Assembly (NCBI GenBank): GCA_964524525.1
Contig: CAZGCP010000001.1
Coordinates: 1 to 33,580, forward strand
Reading direction: 5' to 3'
DNA from: Candidatus Woesearchaeota archaeon
GTDB taxonomy: Archaea; Nanobdellota; Nanobdellia; Pacearchaeales; GW2011-AR1
Length of the DNA: 33,580 nt
How positions within the stretch are numbered: the stretch's first letter is position 1; the number at the start of each line of letters is the position of its first letter. A program made the position numbers and the translations under genes. The notes beneath the pieces are model-generated. The model worked only from the letters and a program-made list of their open reading frames with translations, was not told the origin of the DNA and made no database searches. Below are positions 2 through 18,343 of this stretch, one piece after another.

Positions 2-259
2 GGTGACGGAGTAATAGGAATTGCAAATATACAAAATTTATATAATTTTATAGATATTAAAGTTTTAACAGATAAAAATACAACTTGTGATGAATTAGGA
101 AGATACACTTATTTAAATATTAAAAAAGGTGAAGAAACCAAGATAATCCAATATGGTCCTTCTTGTTATGAAGTTTCTGTTAAAGATTGTGAAATATTAA
201 AAGCAACTGAAAGATTTATGTTAGAAGGTTTTGTAAAAGTTAATAAGATAATTGAATGA
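2..259 (+). CDS. 3' end of an unidentified protein-coding gene; the 5' part lies outside the window
   Basis: Frame 2 is open from the window edge to TGA at 257-259 (...GDGVIGIANIQNLYNF...EGFVKVNKIIE*). No recognisable motif. Confidence 0.35.
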   Translation, partial: GDGVIGIANIQNLYNFIDIKVLTDKNTTCDELGRYTYLNIKKGEETKIIQYGPSCYEVSVKDCEILKATERFMLEGFVKVNKIIE

Positions 260-262
260 TAA

Positions 263-892
263 TTAATTTTTATTAAAATTTCTTTTCTTTTTTATTATAA
301 AATAAACCAAAACAATTATTCCTAAAACAAGAATTAAAATTACTTTAAATAAATTCTCTATTGAAGTGAAAGGTGTTGGTCCTATTGAATACCCAATAAA
401 AATTAAGATTAAAGTCCATATTCCTGCTCCAAGAGAAGTATAAAAACAAAATCTTCCTAAGTGCATTCTTGAAAATCCTGCTGGAAGTGAAATTAATTGC
501 CTTACAACTGGAAAAAGCCTTCCAATAAAGGTGGTTATTTCTCCATTTTTTTCAAAATATCTGTCTGACTTCTTTAAACTTTCTTGTTTAATAAATAAAA
601 AATGCCCGTATTTTGAAACTAGCCTTTCAACACCCTTTCTACCAATAAAAAGTGCAATAGAATAGTTTATAAGAGCTCCTGTAAGGCTTCCTAAAACACT
701 TAAAAAGAAAACTAAAACAAGATCCATACTCCCTTTTTTAATTAATGAGCCTGCTGGAATTAAAATTGCCTCACTTGGAAAAGGAAAAAAAGAACTTTCA
801 ATAGTCATTCCAAAATAAATTCCAAAATAATGAAGATTTTCTATAATTAATAAAATACTCGAATAAATGCTTTGCAATAAATCAAAAACCAT
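263..892 (-). CDS. DedA-family membrane protein (SNARE-associated/VTT domain)
   Basis: 209 aa, polytopic. DedA-like core: ESSFFPFPSEAILIPAGSL...GSLTGALINYSIALFIGRKG...FIGRLFPVVRQLISLPAG. ATG at 890-892 lies 1 nt after the stop of the upstream gene. Confidence 0.75.
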   Translation of the reverse strand: MVFDLLQSIYSSILLIIENLHYFGIYFGMTIESSFFPFPSEAILIPAGSLIKKGSMDLVLVFFLSVLGSLTGALINYSIALFIGRKGVERLVSKYGHFLFIKQESLKKSDRYFEKNGEITTFIGRLFPVVRQLISLPAGFSRMHLGRFCFYTSLGAGIWTLILIFIGYSIGPTPFTSIENLFKVILILVLGIIVLVYFIIKKKRNFNKN

Positions 893-893
893 T

Positions 894-1427
894 TTACTTT
901 TTCTTTATTTGTTTTAAAAGAATTTTGAAATCAGTATAAAAAGGAATCCCTTTTATTTTAAATTTTTTAACTTCCAAAAACCAAATTCCTATTACAAAAA
1001 TTGTGCTTCCCAAATACCATAAAATTTTATGGATTAAAGCAAAAGAAGAAACATCATTCACATATAAAATTCCTAAAACAATTATTCTTGTAATATTTAA
1101 AACTAATAAGATTCCAAAAGAGAAAAGTAATGAATTAATTCTTTTTTTGCAAGAAAGATTTGGAACTGATAAATTCAAAATCAAAAGTAAAAAATAAGCA
1201 GAACCTGCTACACAAGGACCTACAATTTCCAAAGGTATTGAATCCAAAAAAATAGTTGTTCCATTTAAAGAAGTGTTATAAAAAATACTTAATATCCAAT
1301 AAACAGGATAAACAGTTAAAGGAGTAAAAATCCAATAAAAAATATACAATCCTGGAAGTGCAGAAAGAACTAAAATCAAATACCTTAATATAAAATTCTT
1401 AAAATAATTTTTTTTAAATTTTACCAT
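894..1427 (-). CDS. Compact exosortase/archaeosortase-family membrane protein (pacearchaeosortase-like), putative transpeptidase
   Basis: 177 aa with about 5 TM segments. Ordered signature: Cys (EIVGPCVAGSAY), Asn-x-x-Arg (LVLNITRIIVLG), His (ALIHKILWYLG), as in the exosortase/archaeosortase catalytic set. Sits directly downstream of two candidate substrates. Confidence 0.55.
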   Translation of the reverse strand: MVKFKKNYFKNFILRYLILVLSALPGLYIFYWIFTPLTVYPVYWILSIFYNTSLNGTTIFLDSIPLEIVGPCVAGSAYFLLLILNLSVPNLSCKKRINSLLFSFGILLVLNITRIIVLGILYVNDVSSFALIHKILWYLGSTIFVIGIWFLEVKKFKIKGIPFYTDFKILLKQIKKK

Positions 1428-1457: not shown

Positions 1458-1691
1458 TTATTTGAACTTTTTTTCTAAAGAATTATAAAATTTTTCTACT
1501 TTTTCTATTTCTGGAATAAATTTTTCTGGACAATATTCTTGATATTTCCTAGCATTTGAAATTAATTGAGGTATTTCTTTTTGATTTAAAGGTAAATCAC
1601 TTCTATTACTATCCAAATAATCATTAATCTGTGATAAAGACTTATAAATTTCTAAAAATTCTTTAGTCTCTTTATCTTTAAGGCAAATCAT
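1458..1691 (-). CDS. Small hypothetical cytoplasmic protein, translationally coupled to the upstream surface-protein gene
   Basis: 77 aa with no TM segment. Its ATG overlaps the upstream TGA (ATGA, 1688-1691). Confidence 0.45.
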   Translation of the reverse strand: MICLKDKETKEFLEIYKSLSQINDYLDSNRSDLPLNQKEIPQLISNARKYQEYCPEKFIPEIEKVEKFYNSLEKKFK

Positions 1692-3742
1692 TTTGAATTT
1701 TTATTGGAAGGTTCCTTTTCCTCTTTATTTTTTCCTTGATTTTTCTTTTTCAAAGATTTTTTCTTTTTACTTTTTTTAGTAGCAATAGAAATTATTTTTA
1801 CAATTATTAAGATTATTGCTATTATTAATAAAACATTAAGAATTGCTTCCCAATTCCAATCTTTGATTCCTTTAGATTTTTTAACTTCAATTGGAAGTTT
1901 AAATTCAGCAACTACTATTCCATCTTTTCCAATATTCCAATTAATAATTTGTTTTCCTGAAACATTTTCTTTTGATTGAAGAGTGATTTCAACATTTTCT
2001 GATTCTCCAACATCAAGAGTTATTTGTGAAGGGTTTATTGAAATTGATTCTGTCCAATTAGAATTAATATATCCTAACTCATATGTTACTGGTTCATCTT
2101 CGGGATTTGTTATTGTTACATTCAAAACAAACTCATCTCCTGATTTCCTACCTTTTTTAAGACTTGCATCAATCATGTTTGATTTTTTAACTTCATCATA
2201 GAAGTGTGCACACCATAATCCAGTAACATCAACATTTGAAGTATAAATTGCTTTTTCATCATCTACTCCTCCTTCATAAATATCTTTTTCTTCCATATCT
2301 TTATCATCATATACTGTAAATGTAATTGGGTATATTTTTTCTTCAACACCTTCAGGTATTCTTACTAATACATCAAAATTAGAACTTCCTAAGGGATTTA
2401 TTCCACTGTCAAATTCAACAACTTCACTAATTCCTAATTCCTCATTTTCTACTTTTACAAAAATCTCATCTTCTGGAATTTTATCATCTCCAATATTCCA
2501 AATTTTAGGTCTGAATTGTATTTCTGAATCACAAGGAACAAATACATCTAAATCTAAATTCTTTATAACTAAATATTCTTTTAATTTAACATTTAAATCT
2601 TTTAAGGCTGAAGTAGCAGTTTCTTCTCCATCAACATTTTCTTCTTCTGCCTTGTCTCCTTCTAACTCTCCTTTAGCAGAAATCAAAAAGGAATAATCAT
2701 CATTTGTTTCAGATAATTTTTTTGGATCTAATGTGAAAACAATTTCCAAATCCATATCTTTTCCTTTTTCTAAATCAAAATCATCTTCATTAATTTCCAT
2801 ATATCCCTCATCTAAAACACATTTATCATCTTTAATATCATATAAACATATTTCAATTTCAATATCTTCAACATCATAATTTCCTTTGTTGTCAAGTGAA
2901 GTTTCAATTTTTATTTTATCGAAAGGGTAGATTTTTGTTTCTTCTCCTAATCCTTCTTCTACTGAAAAAGTTAATTCGTCAAATACTAATTCACCAAGAT
3001 TTGAAATATCTCCTGCATATCCTTTATTATAAATAACCTCTCCTCCAGCATAATCTCCATTAGAAGAGTTTGCATTCACAATTATTGAATTTTCTCCATA
3101 TTTTAAATCATCAAAATCTGAATCAAGTTTCAAAGTAATTTCTTTTTCTTCTCCTGCAGTTAAATCAAAATCATTTTCAGAAAAATTAACATCAAATTCT
3201 CCTGAATAAGTTAAATTAATTTCAGTTAAACCTGTGTTTCCTTCATTCTTTACTGTGATTGATGTGGTTTTTCTAGTAAAAGTTGAATCTGATACTGATA
3301 AAGAAGATGATTCTGGAACACTTACATCTAAGTAAAAAACAGGATTATTATTTAAAGGTCTTAAATCGCTTTGGTTTGTAGGATTTCTTTCATAACCATC
3401 AAAAGTTATTTCTAAATTATATGAATCTGAAGGTTTATGTTTTGGAACACTTACTTCAAGGCTTATTACTCCAATAGTTCCGTTTTCTATTGAATTGAAA
3501 TTTTTTATTTCAACATTTTCCTCAGAAAAAGGGCCATCTAAAACATTTATTGAAGTAGAAAGATTATATAAATCCCAATTTGCATCTGCTTCAACTTCAA
3601 TATTTATAATTTCAGAAGTTCCGTGATTAATATTTTCCATAGCAGAACTAGATTTTAAAGTTATAGCTGCACTAACAAAACTCATAACTAAAAGTAATAA
3701 AAAAATACTTGCTATTCCTAATGTTAATTTTTTTGATATCAT
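1688..3742 (-). CDS. Secreted, C-terminally anchored surface protein, paralog A (S-layer/adhesin-like)
   Basis: 684 aa. Signal peptide MISKKLTLGIASIFLLLLVMSFVSAA. Acidic Asn/Asp/Glu-rich beta-type domains. C-terminus is SKGIKDWNWEA + TM (ILNVLLIIAIILIIVKIISIA) + Lys-rich tail. Collinear with 3801-5843. Confidence 0.85.
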   Translation of the reverse strand: MISKKLTLGIASIFLLLLVMSFVSAAITLKSSSAMENINHGTSEIINIEVEADANWDLYNLSTSINVLDGPFSEENVEIKNFNSIENGTIGVISLEVSVPKHKPSDSYNLEITFDGYERNPTNQSDLRPLNNNPVFYLDVSVPESSSLSVSDSTFTRKTTSITVKNEGNTGLTEINLTYSGEFDVNFSENDFDLTAGEEKEITLKLDSDFDDLKYGENSIIVNANSSNGDYAGGEVIYNKGYAGDISNLGELVFDELTFSVEEGLGEETKIYPFDKIKIETSLDNKGNYDVEDIEIEICLYDIKDDKCVLDEGYMEINEDDFDLEKGKDMDLEIVFTLDPKKLSETNDDYSFLISAKGELEGDKAEEENVDGEETATSALKDLNVKLKEYLVIKNLDLDVFVPCDSEIQFRPKIWNIGDDKIPEDEIFVKVENEELGISEVVEFDSGINPLGSSNFDVLVRIPEGVEEKIYPITFTVYDDKDMEEKDIYEGGVDDEKAIYTSNVDVTGLWCAHFYDEVKKSNMIDASLKKGRKSGDEFVLNVTITNPEDEPVTYELGYINSNWTESISINPSQITLDVGESENVEITLQSKENVSGKQIINWNIGKDGIVVAEFKLPIEVKKSKGIKDWNWEAILNVLLIIAIILIIVKIISIATKKSKKKKSLKKKNQGKNKEEKEPSNKNSK

Positions 3743-3800: not shown

Positions 3801-5843
3801 TTATTTTTTTATTGCTTTTTTAATATTATTATCTTCTTTTTTTAATTTCTTTTTTTTCTTTCCTTGTTTATGTGATGAAACTATAATTCCTGTAACTACT
3901 CCTACAATTGCAATTCCTAAAACAATATTCATAATAATTTTCCAATTCCAACCTTCAAACCAATCTAAAATACCTTTAGATTCTCTAACAGTTACTGGAA
4001 GTTCATAACTTGCAACAGGAATTTTATTTTTACTAATAGTCCACTCTATGACTTGGTCTCCGTAAACATCTTTTTTAGATTCAATTATTAACTGAACAAT
4101 TACTGATTCTTCAGATTCAAGTGTTAATTCAGAAGAACCTAATGAAATTGACTCTGCCCAATCAACAGTAATATTGCTTAAATCATAAGTTACTTTTTTA
4201 TCTTCTGGATTTGTTATTGTTATGTTTATAATAAATTCATCTCCTGATTTTTCTCCAGATTCAAGATCTGCTTTAATCATTTCTAATTTTGTCTGATCAT
4301 TATAAACTGTTTTACACCATAATCCTGAAACATTTATTGTTGAAGTATATGCTGGATGGTAATCTCCCATATCTTGGTAAATATCATCTAAAAAACTTTT
4401 TTCATATTCTTCATAAGGTGTAAAAACAATATCATATTCTCCTTCTTCAATTCCTTTAGGTATTTCAATTAAAACATCAAAACTTGAACTTTCCAAAGAA
4501 TCTAAATCTTCTTTAAATTCAACAATCTTACTAATATTTAAATCCTTATTATAAACTTCAATAAAAATCCCTTCATTTTTCTCTTCATCTCTTTCTATAT
4601 CCTCTTCCATTAAATTCCAGATTTTTGCATTATATTGTATTTCTGAATTACAAGAAATAGATTCCTCAATTTCTAAATTTTCAATATAAACACTTCCTTC
4701 TTTAATTTCAAAATCTAAACTAGCTGAAATACCTGTTTTGTTACCTGCAAATTCTTCCCTATCTCCTTCTTCTAAAGTTCCTTCTGCTTTTATCCATAAA
4801 GTATAATCTCCTTCAAATTCATTTTCTTCTAAAAAATCTTCACTAAGTTTAAAAATTAATTCTAAATCAATTTCATCGCTATCTTCATCTAAATCAAAAT
4901 CATTTTCATTGATTTCCATTTCATCTAAAGTTGCTATTTCATCTCCTAATTCATCAAAAATAGATGCCTCTATTTCAATATCTTCTATTTCATAATCATC
5001 TTTATCTTCAAGAGCTAATGTAAATTCTGTTCTTACTTTATCTAAAGGATAAAACTCTGCATCTTTGGCATCCCCATATCCTTCTACATATTTAAAATCA
5101 AAATCTTCTATTTCTAAATTATCATTTCTTTGTTCTTCTGTGAAATCTCTAAAAAGATTCAATGTTCCTGTGTTATGAGTTCCAGAAGAATTAGCTGTTA
5201 TAGTTATATCATTATCTCCATATTTTAAATCGCTAACATCTGAAGTAAACATTACTGTAACTTCCTTACTTTCTCCAGGAATTAAACTAAAATCATTTTC
5301 AGAAAAATTAATCCAGTTCTTTGAAGAATTAAGATTTATTGAAGTTAGATCTAAATTTCCTTGATTTTTTATTGTTATATTTTTTTTGTTTTCTCTTATT
5401 ACATCAAATTCTGGAGAAGAAACTGAAATATCTTTTGAATCTTTAATAGTTACTGAAAAAGGTAATGAAGTTGTAGTAGATTCTCTTTCTCCTCTAACTC
5501 CAATATTTCCTTTTATAACTCCTGTTTGATATTTATTAAAGGAAACTGTAGCTTGATAATCCTCTGTTATTTCTGTTCCTGAACCATTGCCTATTGTATT
5601 TTTATTAAAACTTATTTGTAATCCTTCTTGTGAAGAAGTAAAATCTGAATAACTCCAATTTAAATCCCCCTCAACTCCCCCATTTGTTAAATTAAATTTT
5701 ATTTTAAAATTTTCATCATGAGAAACTTCTTCAGGAGAATTAATTAAATTAATATCCTCTAAATCAACAGCACTAACAAAACTCATAACTAAAAGTAATA
5801 AAAAAATACTTGCTAATCCAAGAGTCATTATTTTTGATCTCAT
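3801..5843 (-). CDS. Secreted, C-terminally anchored surface protein, paralog B (S-layer/adhesin-like)
   Basis: 680 aa. Signal peptide MRSKIMTLGLASIFLLLLVMSFVSAV. C-terminus is SKGILDWFEGWNWK + TM (IIMNIVLGIAIVGVVTGIIV) + KKKKKLKK tail. Shares blocks with paralog A (NFSENDF, DLKYG.N.I...ANSS, GLWC, GDEF..N.TITNPED). Confidence 0.85.
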   Translation of the reverse strand: MRSKIMTLGLASIFLLLLVMSFVSAVDLEDINLINSPEEVSHDENFKIKFNLTNGGVEGDLNWSYSDFTSSQEGLQISFNKNTIGNGSGTEITEDYQATVSFNKYQTGVIKGNIGVRGERESTTTSLPFSVTIKDSKDISVSSPEFDVIRENKKNITIKNQGNLDLTSINLNSSKNWINFSENDFSLIPGESKEVTVMFTSDVSDLKYGDNDITITANSSGTHNTGTLNLFRDFTEEQRNDNLEIEDFDFKYVEGYGDAKDAEFYPLDKVRTEFTLALEDKDDYEIEDIEIEASIFDELGDEIATLDEMEINENDFDLDEDSDEIDLELIFKLSEDFLEENEFEGDYTLWIKAEGTLEEGDREEFAGNKTGISASLDFEIKEGSVYIENLEIEESISCNSEIQYNAKIWNLMEEDIERDEEKNEGIFIEVYNKDLNISKIVEFKEDLDSLESSSFDVLIEIPKGIEEGEYDIVFTPYEEYEKSFLDDIYQDMGDYHPAYTSTINVSGLWCKTVYNDQTKLEMIKADLESGEKSGDEFIINITITNPEDKKVTYDLSNITVDWAESISLGSSELTLESEESVIVQLIIESKKDVYGDQVIEWTISKNKIPVASYELPVTVRESKGILDWFEGWNWKIIMNIVLGIAIVGVVTGIIVSSHKQGKKKKKLKKEDNNIKKAIKK

Positions 5844-5907: not shown

Positions 5908-8900
5908 TTAATCGTTTTTAATTATTTTTCCAGTTTTATTATAACCTTTTTCAGTATTAATCTTATAAATGTAAGTTCCACTTGGTCCAGTTATATTAAA
6001 TCTCTTAGTTCCTTTAACATCATTCTCAATTAATCCTTTTTCCAAAGAATTTCCATTTAAATTATAAATATTAATTGAACCATCTTGAGGTTTTTCAAAA
6101 TTATATTTAATATTAAAATCTCCATCAGTTGGATTAGGATATGCTTTAACAGAATAATCTTCAAAAGAGGATTTGTCTATTGATTCATATGTTGTATCAC
6201 TATAAACTGTTTTAGATATAGAGGTGTCATTACCTGCTTTATCTCTAGCATAAATTTCTATAGAGTTCTCTCCTTGTTGATAACCTGCTCCTGTTGTATC
6301 TACTAAATTGTTAATTCCCCAAGATTTTCCATTTACTGTATACCAAGCTGTGTCTAAGTTCTCTTCAATTATTTCCCAAGCCAAATCATTGTCATTCACT
6401 GTCTCTCCTTGAGGTTTATTTATTGAAATTGTTGGTTTTGTATTATCATAAATCCAGTTTCTTGTAATAGAAGAATCATTTCCTGCTTTATCTGTAAAAT
6501 AGTATTCTATTGTATTTGTATCTCCCACCATTCCTTCTAAAGTATCTCCATTACTTTGTTCCCAATCAATTTTATTTCCATTTAATTTTATATATGAATT
6601 AAATGGGTCTATTCTTGAAACTGCATCTGAAACATTGAAATCATTTATAGGATGTGTAGAATAAACTCCTTCTTTATCTGGATGATTTACTTTGAGAGAA
6701 GGTGCAGTATTATCATAAATAAAGTTAATTGTTCTATTTGAATGATTTCCTGCAATGTCTTTTGCATAAATTTGTACTTGGTGTTCTCCTTCAATTTTTG
6801 GAACTTGAATTGTATCTAAATGAGATTTTTTTGGGGGGAAAACTTCATTAACTCCTACATTTATATTTTGTTTTGAATAATCATCTAATTTATACCATAA
6901 AGTATCTAAAAAATTGCTATTATTTGAGCTTGTATCTGAAACTGTAAAAATAAAATCTTCAAGAGTATTTTTATTATAAGAGGAATTATTTTGAAGATTG
7001 AAATTTATTTCAGGATTTTGATTATCTTTATTTGGATTTCCAGTAACAAATCGATTAGAACTTGCAGAATAGGATAAATTAGGATTTCCTACACTATCTA
7101 TATTCCATTCAAGAAAAGTCATGTCTATAAAATTCCCTGTTCCTTCATTATAACCATAATTATATTTTACTTCAATTTTTGAATTACTTAAAGAGTTAGT
7201 ATTTATTTCTGAATCATTTGTTGGATTGAAAAAGAACCAATTATTTGCATCTAGAGGATTATCTTCTGTTAAAATCCCATTAAACCATTCATCACTTGTA
7301 GTATTGTGAACACTATAAATAGGAAGGTTAAATCTTCTTAATGTTTCTAAAGATTCTGGATTTTGTGAAAGAGTTGAACTATATTCTTCTTGAGTTATAT
7401 CTGAAAGGTTTCTTATTCCTTTTGAATTTATTTCTACTTGTCTTGCATAATTTTTGCTGTTCCATACTTCACCAGGAGTAGAATTTTCAGGAATTGAATC
7501 TGATTTATCAATTGAAGCTATGTTTCTAACCCAACTTTGTTTTTCATCATTGGTTAGACTAGTCCAAAATCTTCCTGGAAGATAAGATTTATTTCCTTCA
7601 TCAATATATTTTAAAATCATAGCCTTGTCTATAGGAGTAATAACTCCATCGCCATCAACATCTGCTCTATCATGTGCTCTTGAGATTTCTCCTTCTAATC
7701 TTGGTTGCCCATCTAAATTTATTGCATATTTTGGATTAGGAACATTTTGGCCTAATAAATTATTTATAGAATCTACATCTGCTCGGGTTACTTCTCCATC
7801 ATTATTCAAATCACCATTACCATAACTTGAACTAACATGAGTCTCAGATTGTTTAAATGGATTAATTAACCAGTGTTTATCAAAACCATTAGAAGAATTA
7901 CGATATACAAAATTTTTCTGTGTAGTAACTGTGTTTCCAGCTGAATCTGTGAAAAAGTATTCAATTGTGTTGGTTCCTTCAAGAAGATTCTCTAAAGTAT
8001 CTCCATTGCTTTGTTTCCAATCAATTTTGTTTCCATTTAATTTTATACAAGAGTTTATTGAATCTAAGTAAGTATCTGAAATATTGAATTGATTAATCGG
8101 TCTTTCTAAATATAAACTATCATTTTTTGGAGAACCTACCTTTAAAGAAGGGTAAATTGTATCATAAACAAAACTCTTTGTTATGGAAGTATCATTTCTA
8201 GCTATATCAGAAAAATAATATTCTATTTCATTTCTTCCTTGTCTAGGGTTTAAAACATTTCCTTGAATTGAATCCCAATTATGAATTGTATCATTGTTGA
8301 ATCTTATGAAAGAATTTGTTGAATCTGTTCCAGAAATTGGATCAAATACATTAAAATTATTAAGAGGCCTATAAGAATAATGCATTCCATCTTGTACTGA
8401 ATCTACATTAAAAAAAGGAGCTGTTGTATCATAAACAAAATTTCTTGACATTGAAGAGTTATTTCCTGCTGAATCTGTAAAGAAATATTCCATTTCATTT
8501 AGCCCTTCTATGGGATTCAATATGTCTCCATTACTGTTTTTCCAATCCAAAGTATCTGAATTAAATCTTATGAAAGAATTTGTTGAATCCAAGTAAGTAT
8601 CTGAAACACTGAATTGATTAGTTGGCTTTTCAGAATAGATTGTGTCGTTAACTGGAGTAAGTGAATTTAAATTTGGAGAGATAGTGTCATAAACAAAATT
8701 TCTTGATATTGAAGAGTTATTTCCTGCTGAATCTGTAAAAAAGTATTCTATTGTGTTCCTTACATCTCCAATAGGATTTAGTGTTGCTCCATTGCTATTT
8801 TCCCAACCGCTTGTGTCAATATCAGAACCATTTAATCTTATGAAAGAATTTGTTGAATCCAAGTAAGTATCTGAAATAGTGAATTGATTAGTAGGTTTAT

Positions 8901-9630
8901 ATGAATAATACATCCCATTTTCAGGAGTGGTTACACCTAAATTTGGTTTTGTTGTATCATAAACAAAATTATTTGTTACAGAAGTTTCGTTTCCCAAAGT
9001 ATCAGTAAAATAATAATCCATTTCATTTTTTCCTTCTATTGGATTCAATGTGTCTCCGTTGCTGTTTTCCCAACCAATTGTGTTAACATCAGAAATATTT
9101 AATCTTATGAAAGAATTTGTTGAATCTATTACAGAAACTGCATCTGATATACTGAAATTATTAATTGGTTTTGTTGAATAGTGATTTTTGTTTTGAGGAC
9201 TTCCTATTGTTAATTCAGGAGAAATATTATCAAAATTAAAATTAATTGTTGTATCTTTTACATTTGAAGAATCATCAACAAAATAATATTGTAAAGCATT
9301 CAATCCTTGTTGAGGGTTTAAAGTTTCTCCATTTATAGAATCCCAATTATAAGTTGTATCATTGTTGAATCTTATGAAAGAATTAGAAGTATCTATTTCT
9401 GAAGAATCATCTGAAACAGTAAATTGATTAATTGGCTTTTCAGTATAAACCGAATCATTTACTGGAGAAGTTATTTCTATTTGTGGAGGTATGGTATCTT
9501 GAGCACTTAATTCTTTTGGAGTAGCTAATAAACTAAGTCCTGCAAAAGCTAAAGGTAGAACTGCATTTTTCTTAATTCCCTCCCCTAATCTCTTAAATAA
9601 GCTTACCATTTTTTTCTTCCCTGTTATCAT
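5908..9630 (-). CDS. Giant secreted repeat protein: about 9 Ig-like repeats, a dockerin-like Ca-binding pair, a unique central region and a T9SS-type C-terminal sorting-like domain
   Basis: 1240 aa. Signal-like N-terminus ...AVLPLAFAGLSLLATPKELSAQD. ~86-90 aa repeats (DT..P.L....P.N...YS.KP.NQF..SD...DSTNSFIRLN...W.NSNGD.LNP.EG.N..EYFFTDSAGN.SS..RNFVY). GDLNNDGEVTRADVDSINNLL and DVDGDGVITPIDKAMILKYI. C-terminus YPNPTDGDFNI...INIYNLNGNSL...GTYIYKI...KTGKIIKND. Confidence 0.85.
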   Translation of the reverse strand: MITGKKKMVSLFKRLGEGIKKNAVLPLAFAGLSLLATPKELSAQDTIPPQIEITSPVNDSVYTEKPINQFTVSDDSSEIDTSNSFIRFNNDTTYNWDSINGETLNPQQGLNALQYYFVDDSSNVKDTTINFNFDNISPELTIGSPQNKNHYSTKPINNFSISDAVSVIDSTNSFIRLNISDVNTIGWENSNGDTLNPIEGKNEMDYYFTDTLGNETSVTNNFVYDTTKPNLGVTTPENGMYYSYKPTNQFTISDTYLDSTNSFIRLNGSDIDTSGWENSNGATLNPIGDVRNTIEYFFTDSAGNNSSISRNFVYDTISPNLNSLTPVNDTIYSEKPTNQFSVSDTYLDSTNSFIRFNSDTLDWKNSNGDILNPIEGLNEMEYFFTDSAGNNSSMSRNFVYDTTAPFFNVDSVQDGMHYSYRPLNNFNVFDPISGTDSTNSFIRFNNDTIHNWDSIQGNVLNPRQGRNEIEYYFSDIARNDTSITKSFVYDTIYPSLKVGSPKNDSLYLERPINQFNISDTYLDSINSCIKLNGNKIDWKQSNGDTLENLLEGTNTIEYFFTDSAGNTVTTQKNFVYRNSSNGFDKHWLINPFKQSETHVSSSYGNGDLNNDGEVTRADVDSINNLLGQNVPNPKYAINLDGQPRLEGEISRAHDRADVDGDGVITPIDKAMILKYIDEGNKSYLPGRFWTSLTNDEKQSWVRNIASIDKSDSIPENSTPGEVWNSKNYARQVEINSKGIRNLSDITQEEYSSTLSQNPESLETLRRFNLPIYSVHNTTSDEWFNGILTEDNPLDANNWFFFNPTNDSEINTNSLSNSKIEVKYNYGYNEGTGNFIDMTFLEWNIDSVGNPNLSYSASSNRFVTGNPNKDNQNPEINFNLQNNSSYNKNTLEDFIFTVSDTSSNNSNFLDTLWYKLDDYSKQNINVGVNEVFPPKKSHLDTIQVPKIEGEHQVQIYAKDIAGNHSNRTINFIYDNTAPSLKVNHPDKEGVYSTHPINDFNVSDAVSRIDPFNSYIKLNGNKIDWEQSNGDTLEGMVGDTNTIEYYFTDKAGNDSSITRNWIYDNTKPTISINKPQGETVNDNDLAWEIIEENLDTAWYTVNGKSWGINNLVDTTGAGYQQGENSIEIYARDKAGNDTSISKTVYSDTTYESIDKSSFEDYSVKAYPNPTDGDFNIKYNFEKPQDGSINIYNLNGNSLEKGLIENDVKGTKRFNITGPSGTYIYKINTEKGYNKTGKIIKND

Positions 9631-17677: not shown

Positions 17678-18343
17678 TTAAAAAGGATCATATAATTTTA
17701 ATTTAGCTCCAATTGAAAATCCTCCAGAAGGCAAATTCGCATTTTCATCTTTCAAAGAAATAAAAGGAGAAAATTTTAAAGATAAATTAAAAATTTTATT
17801 TTTATTTAAATTAATTTCTTTTAAAACATCATATTCTAATAAACCAAAAAACCCATAATTCGAAGAGAGTCTTGTATTTGGATCTTCTTCTGAAAAAAAA
17901 CTTTCTTTTAGTCTAGCATAATAAGCCCCAAATCCAAAATGAAATTTTTCTTCTTGAGGGGGTTTATTTAAAAAAAGGAAATCATTAATTGAAGCACTAG
18001 CCCTAAAGTAATTTAAACAAGCACCAGATTCATACCTATTTGATCCTTTTGCAGGTTTACTATCATAAAAAATACTTGTTTCTATATCTCCTATTCTTTT
18101 AATGCCTTTTGTAAAAGATAATTCTAAACCTGGAAAAATTCCATAAGAATTATTCAATCTTGAATCATTAAATCTAAAAACACTCACTCCAGAAGAAAAA
18201 GTATAATTTCTCATTCCATAAACATTTCTTTTATGTACTTGAGAATTAGTATTAACAAATAAAGAAGTGAGGAAAGTTGTAATTAATATGGATTTTTTTA
18301 ATTTGTTAGAAAGTTTTTTCATAATTATTGTAGTATTAGGCAT
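17678..18343 (-). CDS. Secreted protein with an 8-strand amphipathic beta pattern (outer-membrane beta-barrel-like), function unknown
   Basis: 221 aa. An alternative ATG at 18322 gives MKKLSNKLKKSILITTFLTSLFVNTNSQ, a signal-like peptide. Alternating hydrophobic strands: YTFSSGVSVFRF, GLELSFTKG, IETSIFYDS, CLNYFRASASI, FHFGFGAYYARL, YGFFGLLEYDV, FNLSLKFSPFISL, GFSIGAKLKL. Terminal residue is Phe. Confidence 0.6.
   Translation of the reverse strand: MPNTTIIMKKLSNKLKKSILITTFLTSLFVNTNSQVHKRNVYGMRNYTFSSGVSVFRFNDSRLNNSYGIFPGLELSFTKGIKRIGDIETSIFYDSKPAKGSNRYESGACLNYFRASASINDFLFLNKPPQEEKFHFGFGAYYARLKESFFSEEDPNTRLSSNYGFFGLLEYDVLKEINLNKNKIFNLSLKFSPFISLKDENANLPSGGFSIGAKLKLYDPF

Follow-up and report, generated by a model that had tools for sequence, protein, structure and literature searches.

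Tandem putative S-layer proteins of a DPANN archaeon almost certainly carry the PACE-CTERM sorting signal of the pacearchaeosortase encoded beside them

How surface proteins are recognized by a membrane enzyme encoded next to them is the question raised by the left end of the DNA analyzed here, hereafter the window, which comprises 33,580 nucleotides (positions 1 to 33,580, forward strand) of contig CAZGCP010000001.1 in assembly GCA_964524525.1 of a Candidatus Woesearchaeota archaeon. Two paralogous surface proteins, designated paralogs A and B, are encoded there close to a compact sortase of 177 residues, and both end in the same succession of elements: first ..SKGI.DW..(N)W.., then a hydrophobic helix and last a tail rich in Lys. 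An original prediction, made from the sequence alone, had taken this succession for a tripartite sorting signal of the sortase type, possibly a new one, that differs from LPXTG, PEP-CTERM and PGF-CTERM and is recognized by the compact sortase encoded nearby. The tripartite organization and the assignment to the neighboring enzyme stand. The tail is almost certainly the PACE-CTERM sorting signal, cognate to the pacearchaeosortase family. Novelty has to be given up: signal and enzyme are already named as a pair in NCBIfam, as a database curation, and the present case is a rediscovery. The best overall explanation, which we consider likely, is that the tail acts as the recognition tag of two putative surface-layer (S-layer) glycoproteins for the adjacent pacearchaeosortase.

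Both open reading frames (ORFs) have exactly the C-terminal ends that had been quoted, with paralog A finishing in ...LPIEVKKSKGIKDWNWEAILNVLLIIAIILIIVKIISIATKKSKKKKSLKKKNQGKNKEEKEPSNKNSK and paralog B in ...LPVTVRESKGILDWFEGWNWKIIMNIVLGIAIVGVVTGIIVSSHKQGKKKKKLKKEDNNIKKAIKK. The corresponding features of the window are the following.

1688..3742, minus strand: paralog A, 684 residues, PACE-CTERM putative S-layer protein
1835..1876, minus strand: signal core of paralog A, residues 623-636, SKGIKDWNWEAILN, holding the family-invariant N-W and the intramembrane Asn636
1781..1846, minus strand: hydrophobic helix of paralog A, residues 633-654, AILNVLLIIAIILIIVKIISIA
1691..1780, minus strand: Lys-rich tail of paralog A, predicted to be cytoplasmic, residues 655-684 (30 residues), with the stop codon at 1688-1690
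3801..5843, minus strand: paralog B, 680 residues, of the same PACE-CTERM protein family as paralog A
3927..3980, minus strand: signal core of paralog B, residues 622-639, SKGILDWFEGWNWKIIMN
3879..3938, minus strand: hydrophobic helix of paralog B, residues 636-655, IIMNIVLGIAIVGVVTGIIV
3804..3878, minus strand: Lys-rich tail of paralog B, residues 656-680 (25 residues)
894..1427, minus strand: pacearchaeosortase, 177 residues, sole copy in the assembly

The identity of the system is provided by two curated NCBIfam models. The 177-residue protein matches NF033505 ('pacearchaeosortase') with 215.8 bits (cut-off 80), over model positions 3-167 of 167. Paralog A matches NF033506 ('PACE-CTERM-PROT, putative S-layer protein') with 250.6 bits (cut-off 110; residues 4-651, model 2-625 of 627), and paralog B with 236.4 bits (cut-off 110; residues 4-650, model 2-621 of 627). 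Because these alignments reach inside the C-terminal helix, the curated model already contains the signal. A search of the assembly (617 kb, 122 contigs, 80.7% complete) found one sortase gene, and the two paralogs were the only proteins above the NF033506 cut-off. On each criterion checked here, the system is the NF033505/NF033506 pair. In the literature, a search on the family names pacearchaeosortase and PACE-CTERM found no paper using them, and combining 'archaeosortase' with 'DPANN' or 'Pacearchaeota' returned just reviews without coverage of the pacearchaeosortase family; these list archaeosortases ArtA to ArtE only and are silent on these archaea.

As read from their sequences, both paralogs begin with a clear signal peptide. 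Their ectodomains are acidic (isoelectric point about 4.1) and contain immunoglobulin (Ig)-like domains, the only domains detected by Pfam, with 9 N-x-S/T sequons in paralog A and 12 in paralog B. These features are consistent with a putative S-layer protein, a name that is itself a guess of the NCBIfam curators. The signal-peptide cores of the two proteins (LG(I/L)ASIFLLLLVMSFVSA; positions 3660-3742 and 5760-5843, minus strand) are identical despite an overall identity of 39%, which suggests gene conversion or a strong constraint at the 5′ end.

Within the genome studied, the two paralogs alone carry the signal. When only the final 90 residues are considered, SKG[ILVM], G.DW and W.W are combined in just 2 of 1991 ORFs (stop to stop, at least 60 residues), a search with the signal profile returned paralogs A and B as its top two matches, and a regular expression together with two profiles found no further substrate in the assembly. 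A generic C-terminal helix with Lys or Arg after it is present in 16 other ORFs, all of them devoid of the motif. The motif pattern in this genome is not a chance one, and the system is one with a single substrate family, the substrate being here a tandem duplicate. The same local picture could be drawn for a tail that is a permanent membrane anchor kept by descent, the sortase acting elsewhere or leaving the tail unprocessed. The occurrence of the motif on two paralogs only and the plain helix and Lys tail of other surface ORFs agree with such an anchor, while the lack of any other candidate substrate for the sortase in this genome speaks against it. The paralog pair alone says little about the motif, because the last extracellular domain is about as similar between the two proteins as the motif is.

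The signal stands out once orthologues from other genomes are compared. In an alignment of the last 230 residues of 14 orthologues from the window's order, the signal coincides with the most conserved stretch of 12 columns, and the block is special because it is the best-conserved stretch across other genomes, not on account of the paralog pair. It contains an invariant Asn, followed by Trp in 11 of 13 sequences and by a second Trp three positions on in 10 of 12. Within the helix, all 14 sequences share an Asn, a Leu three residues after it and an Ile seven residues after it. The order consensus reads ..G....(D/G)NW.(L/I)WGIG.LN(I/V)(I/V)L...II.VA.(R/K)V.(R/K)(R/K)-stop, and the window versions, DW-NW-E--AILNVLL in paralog A and GW-NW-KI--IMNIVL in paralog B, keep the N-W and the intramembrane N, L and I. 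The original prediction had described the Trp motif as conserved and the helix and tail as drifted; for the helix this requires amendment, as the conserved block of both paralogs includes the first turns of the helix, (I/M)(L/M)N(V/I)(L/V)L. SKGI, which had been counted in the motif, is conserved within the genus (in another genome of the genus, SKGIQDWDWEAILN) and not family-wide. Substrates of sister orders, with ..(V/I)FW(I/V)(I/L)(G/A)D(I/V)(I/V)LV...K(L)(I/L)F..KK, show the same Trp followed by an intramembrane Asp. The family-wide core, then, is not SKGI; it consists of N-W..W, located at the membrane edge, and of an invariant Asn within the helix, replaced by Asp in the sister orders.

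Such conservation bears on what the tail does. For a passive anchor, invariant polar residues within the helix would be needless, and the position of the block as the most conserved part of the C-terminal third argues against that function. Another possibility is that the Trp and the intramembrane Asn or Asp drive helix-helix association of S-layer subunits, independently of the sortase. One Asn or Asp placed in a transmembrane segment is known to drive the association of helices, S-layer proteins are oligomeric, and the invariance of the Asn in 14 of 14 orthologues would suit such a role. This explanation is nevertheless most improbable, as it leaves the co-occurrence of block and enzyme and their tight gene pairing (see below) unexplained, and the polar residue is absent from some substrates.

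Co-occurrence was followed in 201 genomes of the window's order (order sample) and 301 genomes of the phylum (phylum sample); the sampled genomes are related, and the counts are descriptive, with no statistical test. In the order sample, the sortase is present in 190/201 genomes (73/76 among high-quality genomes) and the substrate family in 198/201, in 192 of them above the cut-off; two genomes have neither. The two genes are often close neighbors. Their typical distance is 50-80 nucleotides, with nine genomes as examples; at least 20 of the 29 loci fetched from the order have a signal-ending gene no more than 1.5 kb away from that of the sortase, and in the window the distance from the sortase gene to paralog A is 260 nucleotides, on the same strand. 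In the phylum sample, the sortase occurs in 69/301 genomes (66 above the cut-off) and is confined to certain families, with 10/10, 9/9 and 11/14 genomes in three of them versus 0/24 and 0/36 in others. A 38-position signal profile, built from substrates of the window's order and from outside it, was run on the phylum sample. Each of its 46 best matches (E ≤ 4e-6) comes from a different genome, and nearly all of them lie on ORFs of 520-710 residues; weaker matches are unspecific hydrophobic segments. Of these 46, 41 belong to the 69 sortase-positive genomes and 5 to the 232 sortase-negative ones; this count of signal against enzyme, which the original prediction had proposed, supports the cognate relationship. 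That the block follows the enzyme across the families of the phylum, and that the gene pair is adjacent in most genomes, are both difficult to reconcile with a mere anchor kept by descent. It had also been suggested that a motif found only in these two paralogs would point to simple shared ancestry. The restriction is literally true in the genome studied and does not extend to about 190 other genomes, and it is no refutation, because the orthologues there keep the signal beside the enzyme.

A second type of surface protein was encountered in these searches. In 18 sortase-negative genomes (L035 to L052; for example L035:641-1984, minus strand), the best NF033506 matches are proteins of 414-487 residues with Ig-like domains whose C-terminal part runs from a helix through a few basic residues to an acidic tail, closing with an invariant ..(T/S/P/K)YY-stop, mostly (Q/E)TYY. 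A profile search detected such TYY-tailed proteins in 247/301 genomes of the phylum sample, usually once and with or without the sortase, and in 0/14 genomes of the window's order at E ≤ 1e-6; the genome studied has a divergent TYY-type ORF of 437 residues ending in GESYY (contig C32, around C32:4146-4796). The idea that the TYY tail is an anchor replacing PACE-CTERM was rejected, as the tail also occurs in sortase-positive families outside the order and marks a separate paralogous family. The quite different anchor of these relatives, in genomes with and without the enzyme, is another point against descent alone as the reason for the PACE-CTERM tail. Three TYY-tailed proteins from sortase-less genomes reach 111-137 bits on NF033506 (cut-off 110) without having the PACE-CTERM signal; automatic annotation will consequently call them 'putative S-layer protein' even where the pacearchaeosortase is missing, and the curated NF033506 cut-off is slightly too permissive.

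At the locus itself, five genes follow one another on the minus strand at the left end of the window, namely those of paralog B, paralog A, a 77-residue ORF, the sortase and a DedA/VTT-domain protein. The two that have not yet been described are the following.

1458..1691, minus strand: 77-residue ORF, between the sortase gene and paralog A
263..892, minus strand: DedA/VTT-domain membrane protein, immediately downstream of the sortase gene

The DedA/VTT gene often neighbors the sortase gene in other genomes too, and its product gives a weak match to UptA, a polyprenyl-phosphate transporter, under the cut-off of that model; as a recurrent neighbor it does no more than hint at a lipid-handling step. 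Other sortase loci contain sequences that look like PAP2 phosphatases, a judgment made by reading alone. The 77-residue ORF overlaps the stop codon of paralog A by 4 nucleotides and has no family match in Pfam or NCBIfam. It has a counterpart with 60% identity in one genome of the same genus, and a search of 39 other relatives returned none; being restricted to the genus, the ORF is no general component of the system. The window (24-30% G+C, AT-rich) contains archaeal ribosomal-protein and FtsZ genes, and the host is a small-genome DPANN archaeon.

Two small proteins also recur around these genes. One, represented in the window by a fragment at 2-259 (plus strand) without a Pfam match and also seen in L006 to L034, ends in ..NA(T/S)CD..GRY......CY......CEIL..TE(R/K)F(M/I).E.. 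and, in the majority of the order's loci, adjoins the genes for the sortase, DedA and the substrate. It is often accompanied by a second one, ending in ..C(V/I)(F/Y)I.G......L.D.FL..I.G(I/V).

The enzyme has the residues expected of its superfamily. Cys72, Arg96, Asn111, Arg114 and His133 are invariant in alignments of 25 and of 9 homologues, and the exosortase/archaeosortase signature TIGR04178 is matched with 30.4 bits (cut-off 23). Conserved Cys, Arg and His residues are reported to be needed in archaeosortases (PMC6098224), the Cys of ArtA being Cys-173 (PMC7157517). Hydropathy reveals four to five hydrophobic segments, as in a polytopic membrane protein, and an AlphaFold model of moderate confidence (pLDDT 73, pTM 0.64) predicts helices at residues 6-23, 27-49, 69-86, 93-124 and 126-154. 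From the positive-inside rule and hydropathy, we infer that the Lys-rich termini and the KKR loop (residues 94-96) are on the cytoplasmic side; given this orientation, Cys72, Arg114 and His133 would lie near the outer leaflet, level with the N-W...N of the substrate. This provisional topology agrees roughly with the AlphaFold model. Neither a sequence search of the PDB nor a Foldseek search with this moderate model (best E-value 0.66) found a meaningful relative of the sortase, and Pfam returned nothing for it. After NF033505, the best NCBIfam matches are ArtE (29 bits, cut-off 95), XrtM (24.7 bits, cut-off 125) and ArtD (20.6 bits, cut-off 125), followed by XrtX and XrtH with E of about 0.08.

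Taken together, these elements would fit a pathway in four steps. The N-terminal signal peptide, as read from the sequence, would export each paralog. The C-terminal helix would hold the protein for a time in the membrane, with the Lys-rich tail in the cytoplasm according to the positive-inside rule. The sortase, with its four to five helices, would dock on two points of the substrate helix, the N-W at the interface and the Asn within the membrane. Finally, by analogy with Haloferax volcanii ArtA only, the active-site cysteine would remove helix and tail, and the new C-terminus would go to a membrane lipid. Cleavage and lipid anchoring are on this analogy the somewhat favored outcome.

The outcome could also be cleavage without lipid attachment, after which the protein would either stay in the surface layer through contacts with other proteins or be shed. 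Small-genome DPANN archaea generally have no lipid synthesis genes, there is no PssA/PssD-type gene near the sortase in the window, and the enzyme, with just 177 residues, is about half the size of ArtA (roughly 300 residues), all of which would suit a simple cut. Opposed to this are the recurrence of lipid-handling genes as neighbors (DedA/VTT here, PAP2-like elsewhere as judged by reading) and the precedent of ArtA, the sole studied archaeosortase, in which cleavage and lipid attachment both require the enzyme and the PGF motif (PMC5744192, PMC7157517). The analogy is taken from the ArtA/PGF-CTERM system of Haloferax volcanii (PMC7157517, PMC6098224), for which it is proposed that cleavage by the cysteine is followed by transfer of the new C-terminus to a lipid amine (PMC7157517). 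Cleavage alone appears unlikely on this balance, and cleavage with lipid anchoring is retained as the working outcome.

Several points weigh against the tail being a recognition tag that is processed in this way. The relatedness of the sampled genomes means that the independence of the counts is overstated, and the presence of the signal on two paralogs only means that its local conservation could be shared ancestry. Among the 69 sortase-positive genomes of the phylum sample, 28 fall under the strict profile threshold, a shortfall provisionally read as insensitivity of the profile. Some substrates in sortase-positive genomes (loci L060 and L063) have no intramembrane Asp or Asn. Cleavage and lipidation by the pacearchaeosortase are drawn from analogy, and as regards the lipid acceptor, DPANN archaea are generally without lipid synthesis of their own. 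The most direct counter-example is genome G035, from the same taxonomic family as the host (95% complete, 4 contigs), which has an intact signal and no sortase gene anywhere. At its locus (L079, C1:377000-385000), the substrate ends in ..SSLIWIIAAVNLVLIILIILVAVRLSHR, the DedA gene follows 34 nucleotides after the substrate gene, and the sortase slot is empty. Here the enzyme seems to have been lost in nature, which implies that the tail can outlast it, at least temporarily, as a simple anchor.

Four further sortase-negative genomes, G305, G261, G229 and G374, have strong signal matches and count on the same side. Two of them, G229 and G374, come from a family in which the enzyme is usually present. 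No archaeosortase of any kind occurs in G261 or in its family member G381, and the related tails of these two genomes are without the Asp, a hint that the polar residue may disappear once the sortase has been lost. A hidden or divergent sortase was sought in the five exception genomes with NF033505 (E ≤ 10) and TIGR04178, and archaeosortase-like genes were found in G305 only. They encode two archaeosortase-family proteins of 304 and 320 residues (L076:345-1256 and L078:1492-2451) that score about 50 bits on TIGR04178 and match no named subfamily; the PACE-CTERM-like protein of G305 keeps the FWIIGD core without an NF033505 enzyme. The tails retained in G035, G261 and G381 are what a permanent anchor would predict. 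Set beside the conservation of the block, its distribution with the enzyme and the gene pairing, they leave that explanation improbable, and recognition by the adjacent pacearchaeosortase is the preferred reading.

A more specific form of this recognition can be put forward tentatively, although we think it rather doubtful. The determinant read by the sortase may lie inside the outer leaflet, made of an invariant interfacial Trp and a buried Asn (in this order) or Asp (in sister orders) one to two turns further on, to which the genus would have added a shortened core and a poly-Lys cytoplasmic extension of 25-30 residues. In the PGF, PEP and LPXTG signals, by contrast, the motif is extracellular. 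If this is true, the shortened core and poly-Lys extension of the genus may alter the dwell time of the precursor in the membrane.

Two other proteins of the window are worth recording. The first (5908-9630, minus strand) has 1240 residues and a bacterial-type C-terminal sorting domain of the type IX secretion system (T9SS), with 41.1 bits on TIGR04183 (cut-off 23) and 31.4 bits on Pfam Por_Secre_tail (cut-off 27). It also carries a dockerin module and OmpL47-type repeats, and may have been acquired from Bacteroidota. The second (17678-18343, minus strand) is an ORF of 221 residues with a signal-peptide-like N-terminus, an aromatic C-terminal residue and no match in Pfam.

If the ArtA analogy holds, the pair would fix the main surface protein of many ultra-small DPANN archaea to the membrane, and would do so on lipids that these archaea probably cannot make, which bears on how episymbionts build their envelope. 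That question belongs to the cataloged family and not to the window specifically. The additions made here are modest. They comprise a sharper signal consensus (N-W..W..N/D inside the helix), phylum-wide counts of the signal following the enzyme, natural enzyme-less cases in which the tail is kept, and a caution on the NF033506 cut-off, which admits the TYY-tailed family.

Comparison with known systems places the window at increasing proximity to its own family. PEP-CTERM, LPXTG, rhombosortase/GlyGly-CTERM and myxosortase/MYXO-CTERM share a plan in which a C-terminal motif, helix and basic cluster are recognized by a membrane enzyme of their own (PMC6098224, PMC11980579). The differences lie in the motifs and enzymes. 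With respect to PEP-CTERM and EpsH (XrtA), there is no Pro-Glu-Pro motif, exosortase matches are weak, and EpsH-type enzymes have eight transmembrane segments. With respect to LPXTG and sortase A, 'LPIEV' and 'LPVTV' occur 10-14 residues before the helix without T-G, and no sortase-family match in Pfam or NCBIfam was found among six neighboring proteins scanned. The GlyGly and Cys motifs of rhombosortase and myxosortase substrates are absent, and the folds of sortase A, rhombosortase and myxosortase are unrelated to that of the window enzyme.

Among archaeal systems, ArtA/PGF-CTERM is similar in its tripartite motif, hydrophobic helix and basic residues, in having an S-layer glycoprotein as its main substrate, and in an enzyme of the exosortase/archaeosortase superfamily with conserved Cys, Arg and His. 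It differs in that neither window tail contains Pro-Gly-Phe and no ArtA model is matched, and in having 1 to 52 PGF-CTERM substrates (PMC6098224) versus one substrate family per genome here. ArtD, ArtE, XrtM, XrtH and XrtX are of similar minimal size (model lengths 150-168) and provide the next-best matches, but the scores are far under their cut-offs (95-170 bits) and each has its own cognate motif.

The closest system remains the NF033505/NF033506 pair, with three genes of the window passing the cut-offs in a gene order that is that of most genomes in the order. Within this family, the window paralogs are divergent, with 250 and 236 bits versus 300-710 for most members. Their core is 2-4 residues shorter (DWNWE--AILN versus DNWYLWGIGALN) and without the second Trp. 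Most members stop after R-V-A-R-K, 3-5 residues past the helix, unlike the long tails of 25-30 Lys-rich residues found here. The substrate gene is in tandem duplicate, and the genus-specific 77-residue ORF separates the substrate and enzyme genes. These local peculiarities, namely the short core, the long Lys tails, the tandem duplicate and the 77-residue ORF, are minor variants of the cataloged pair.

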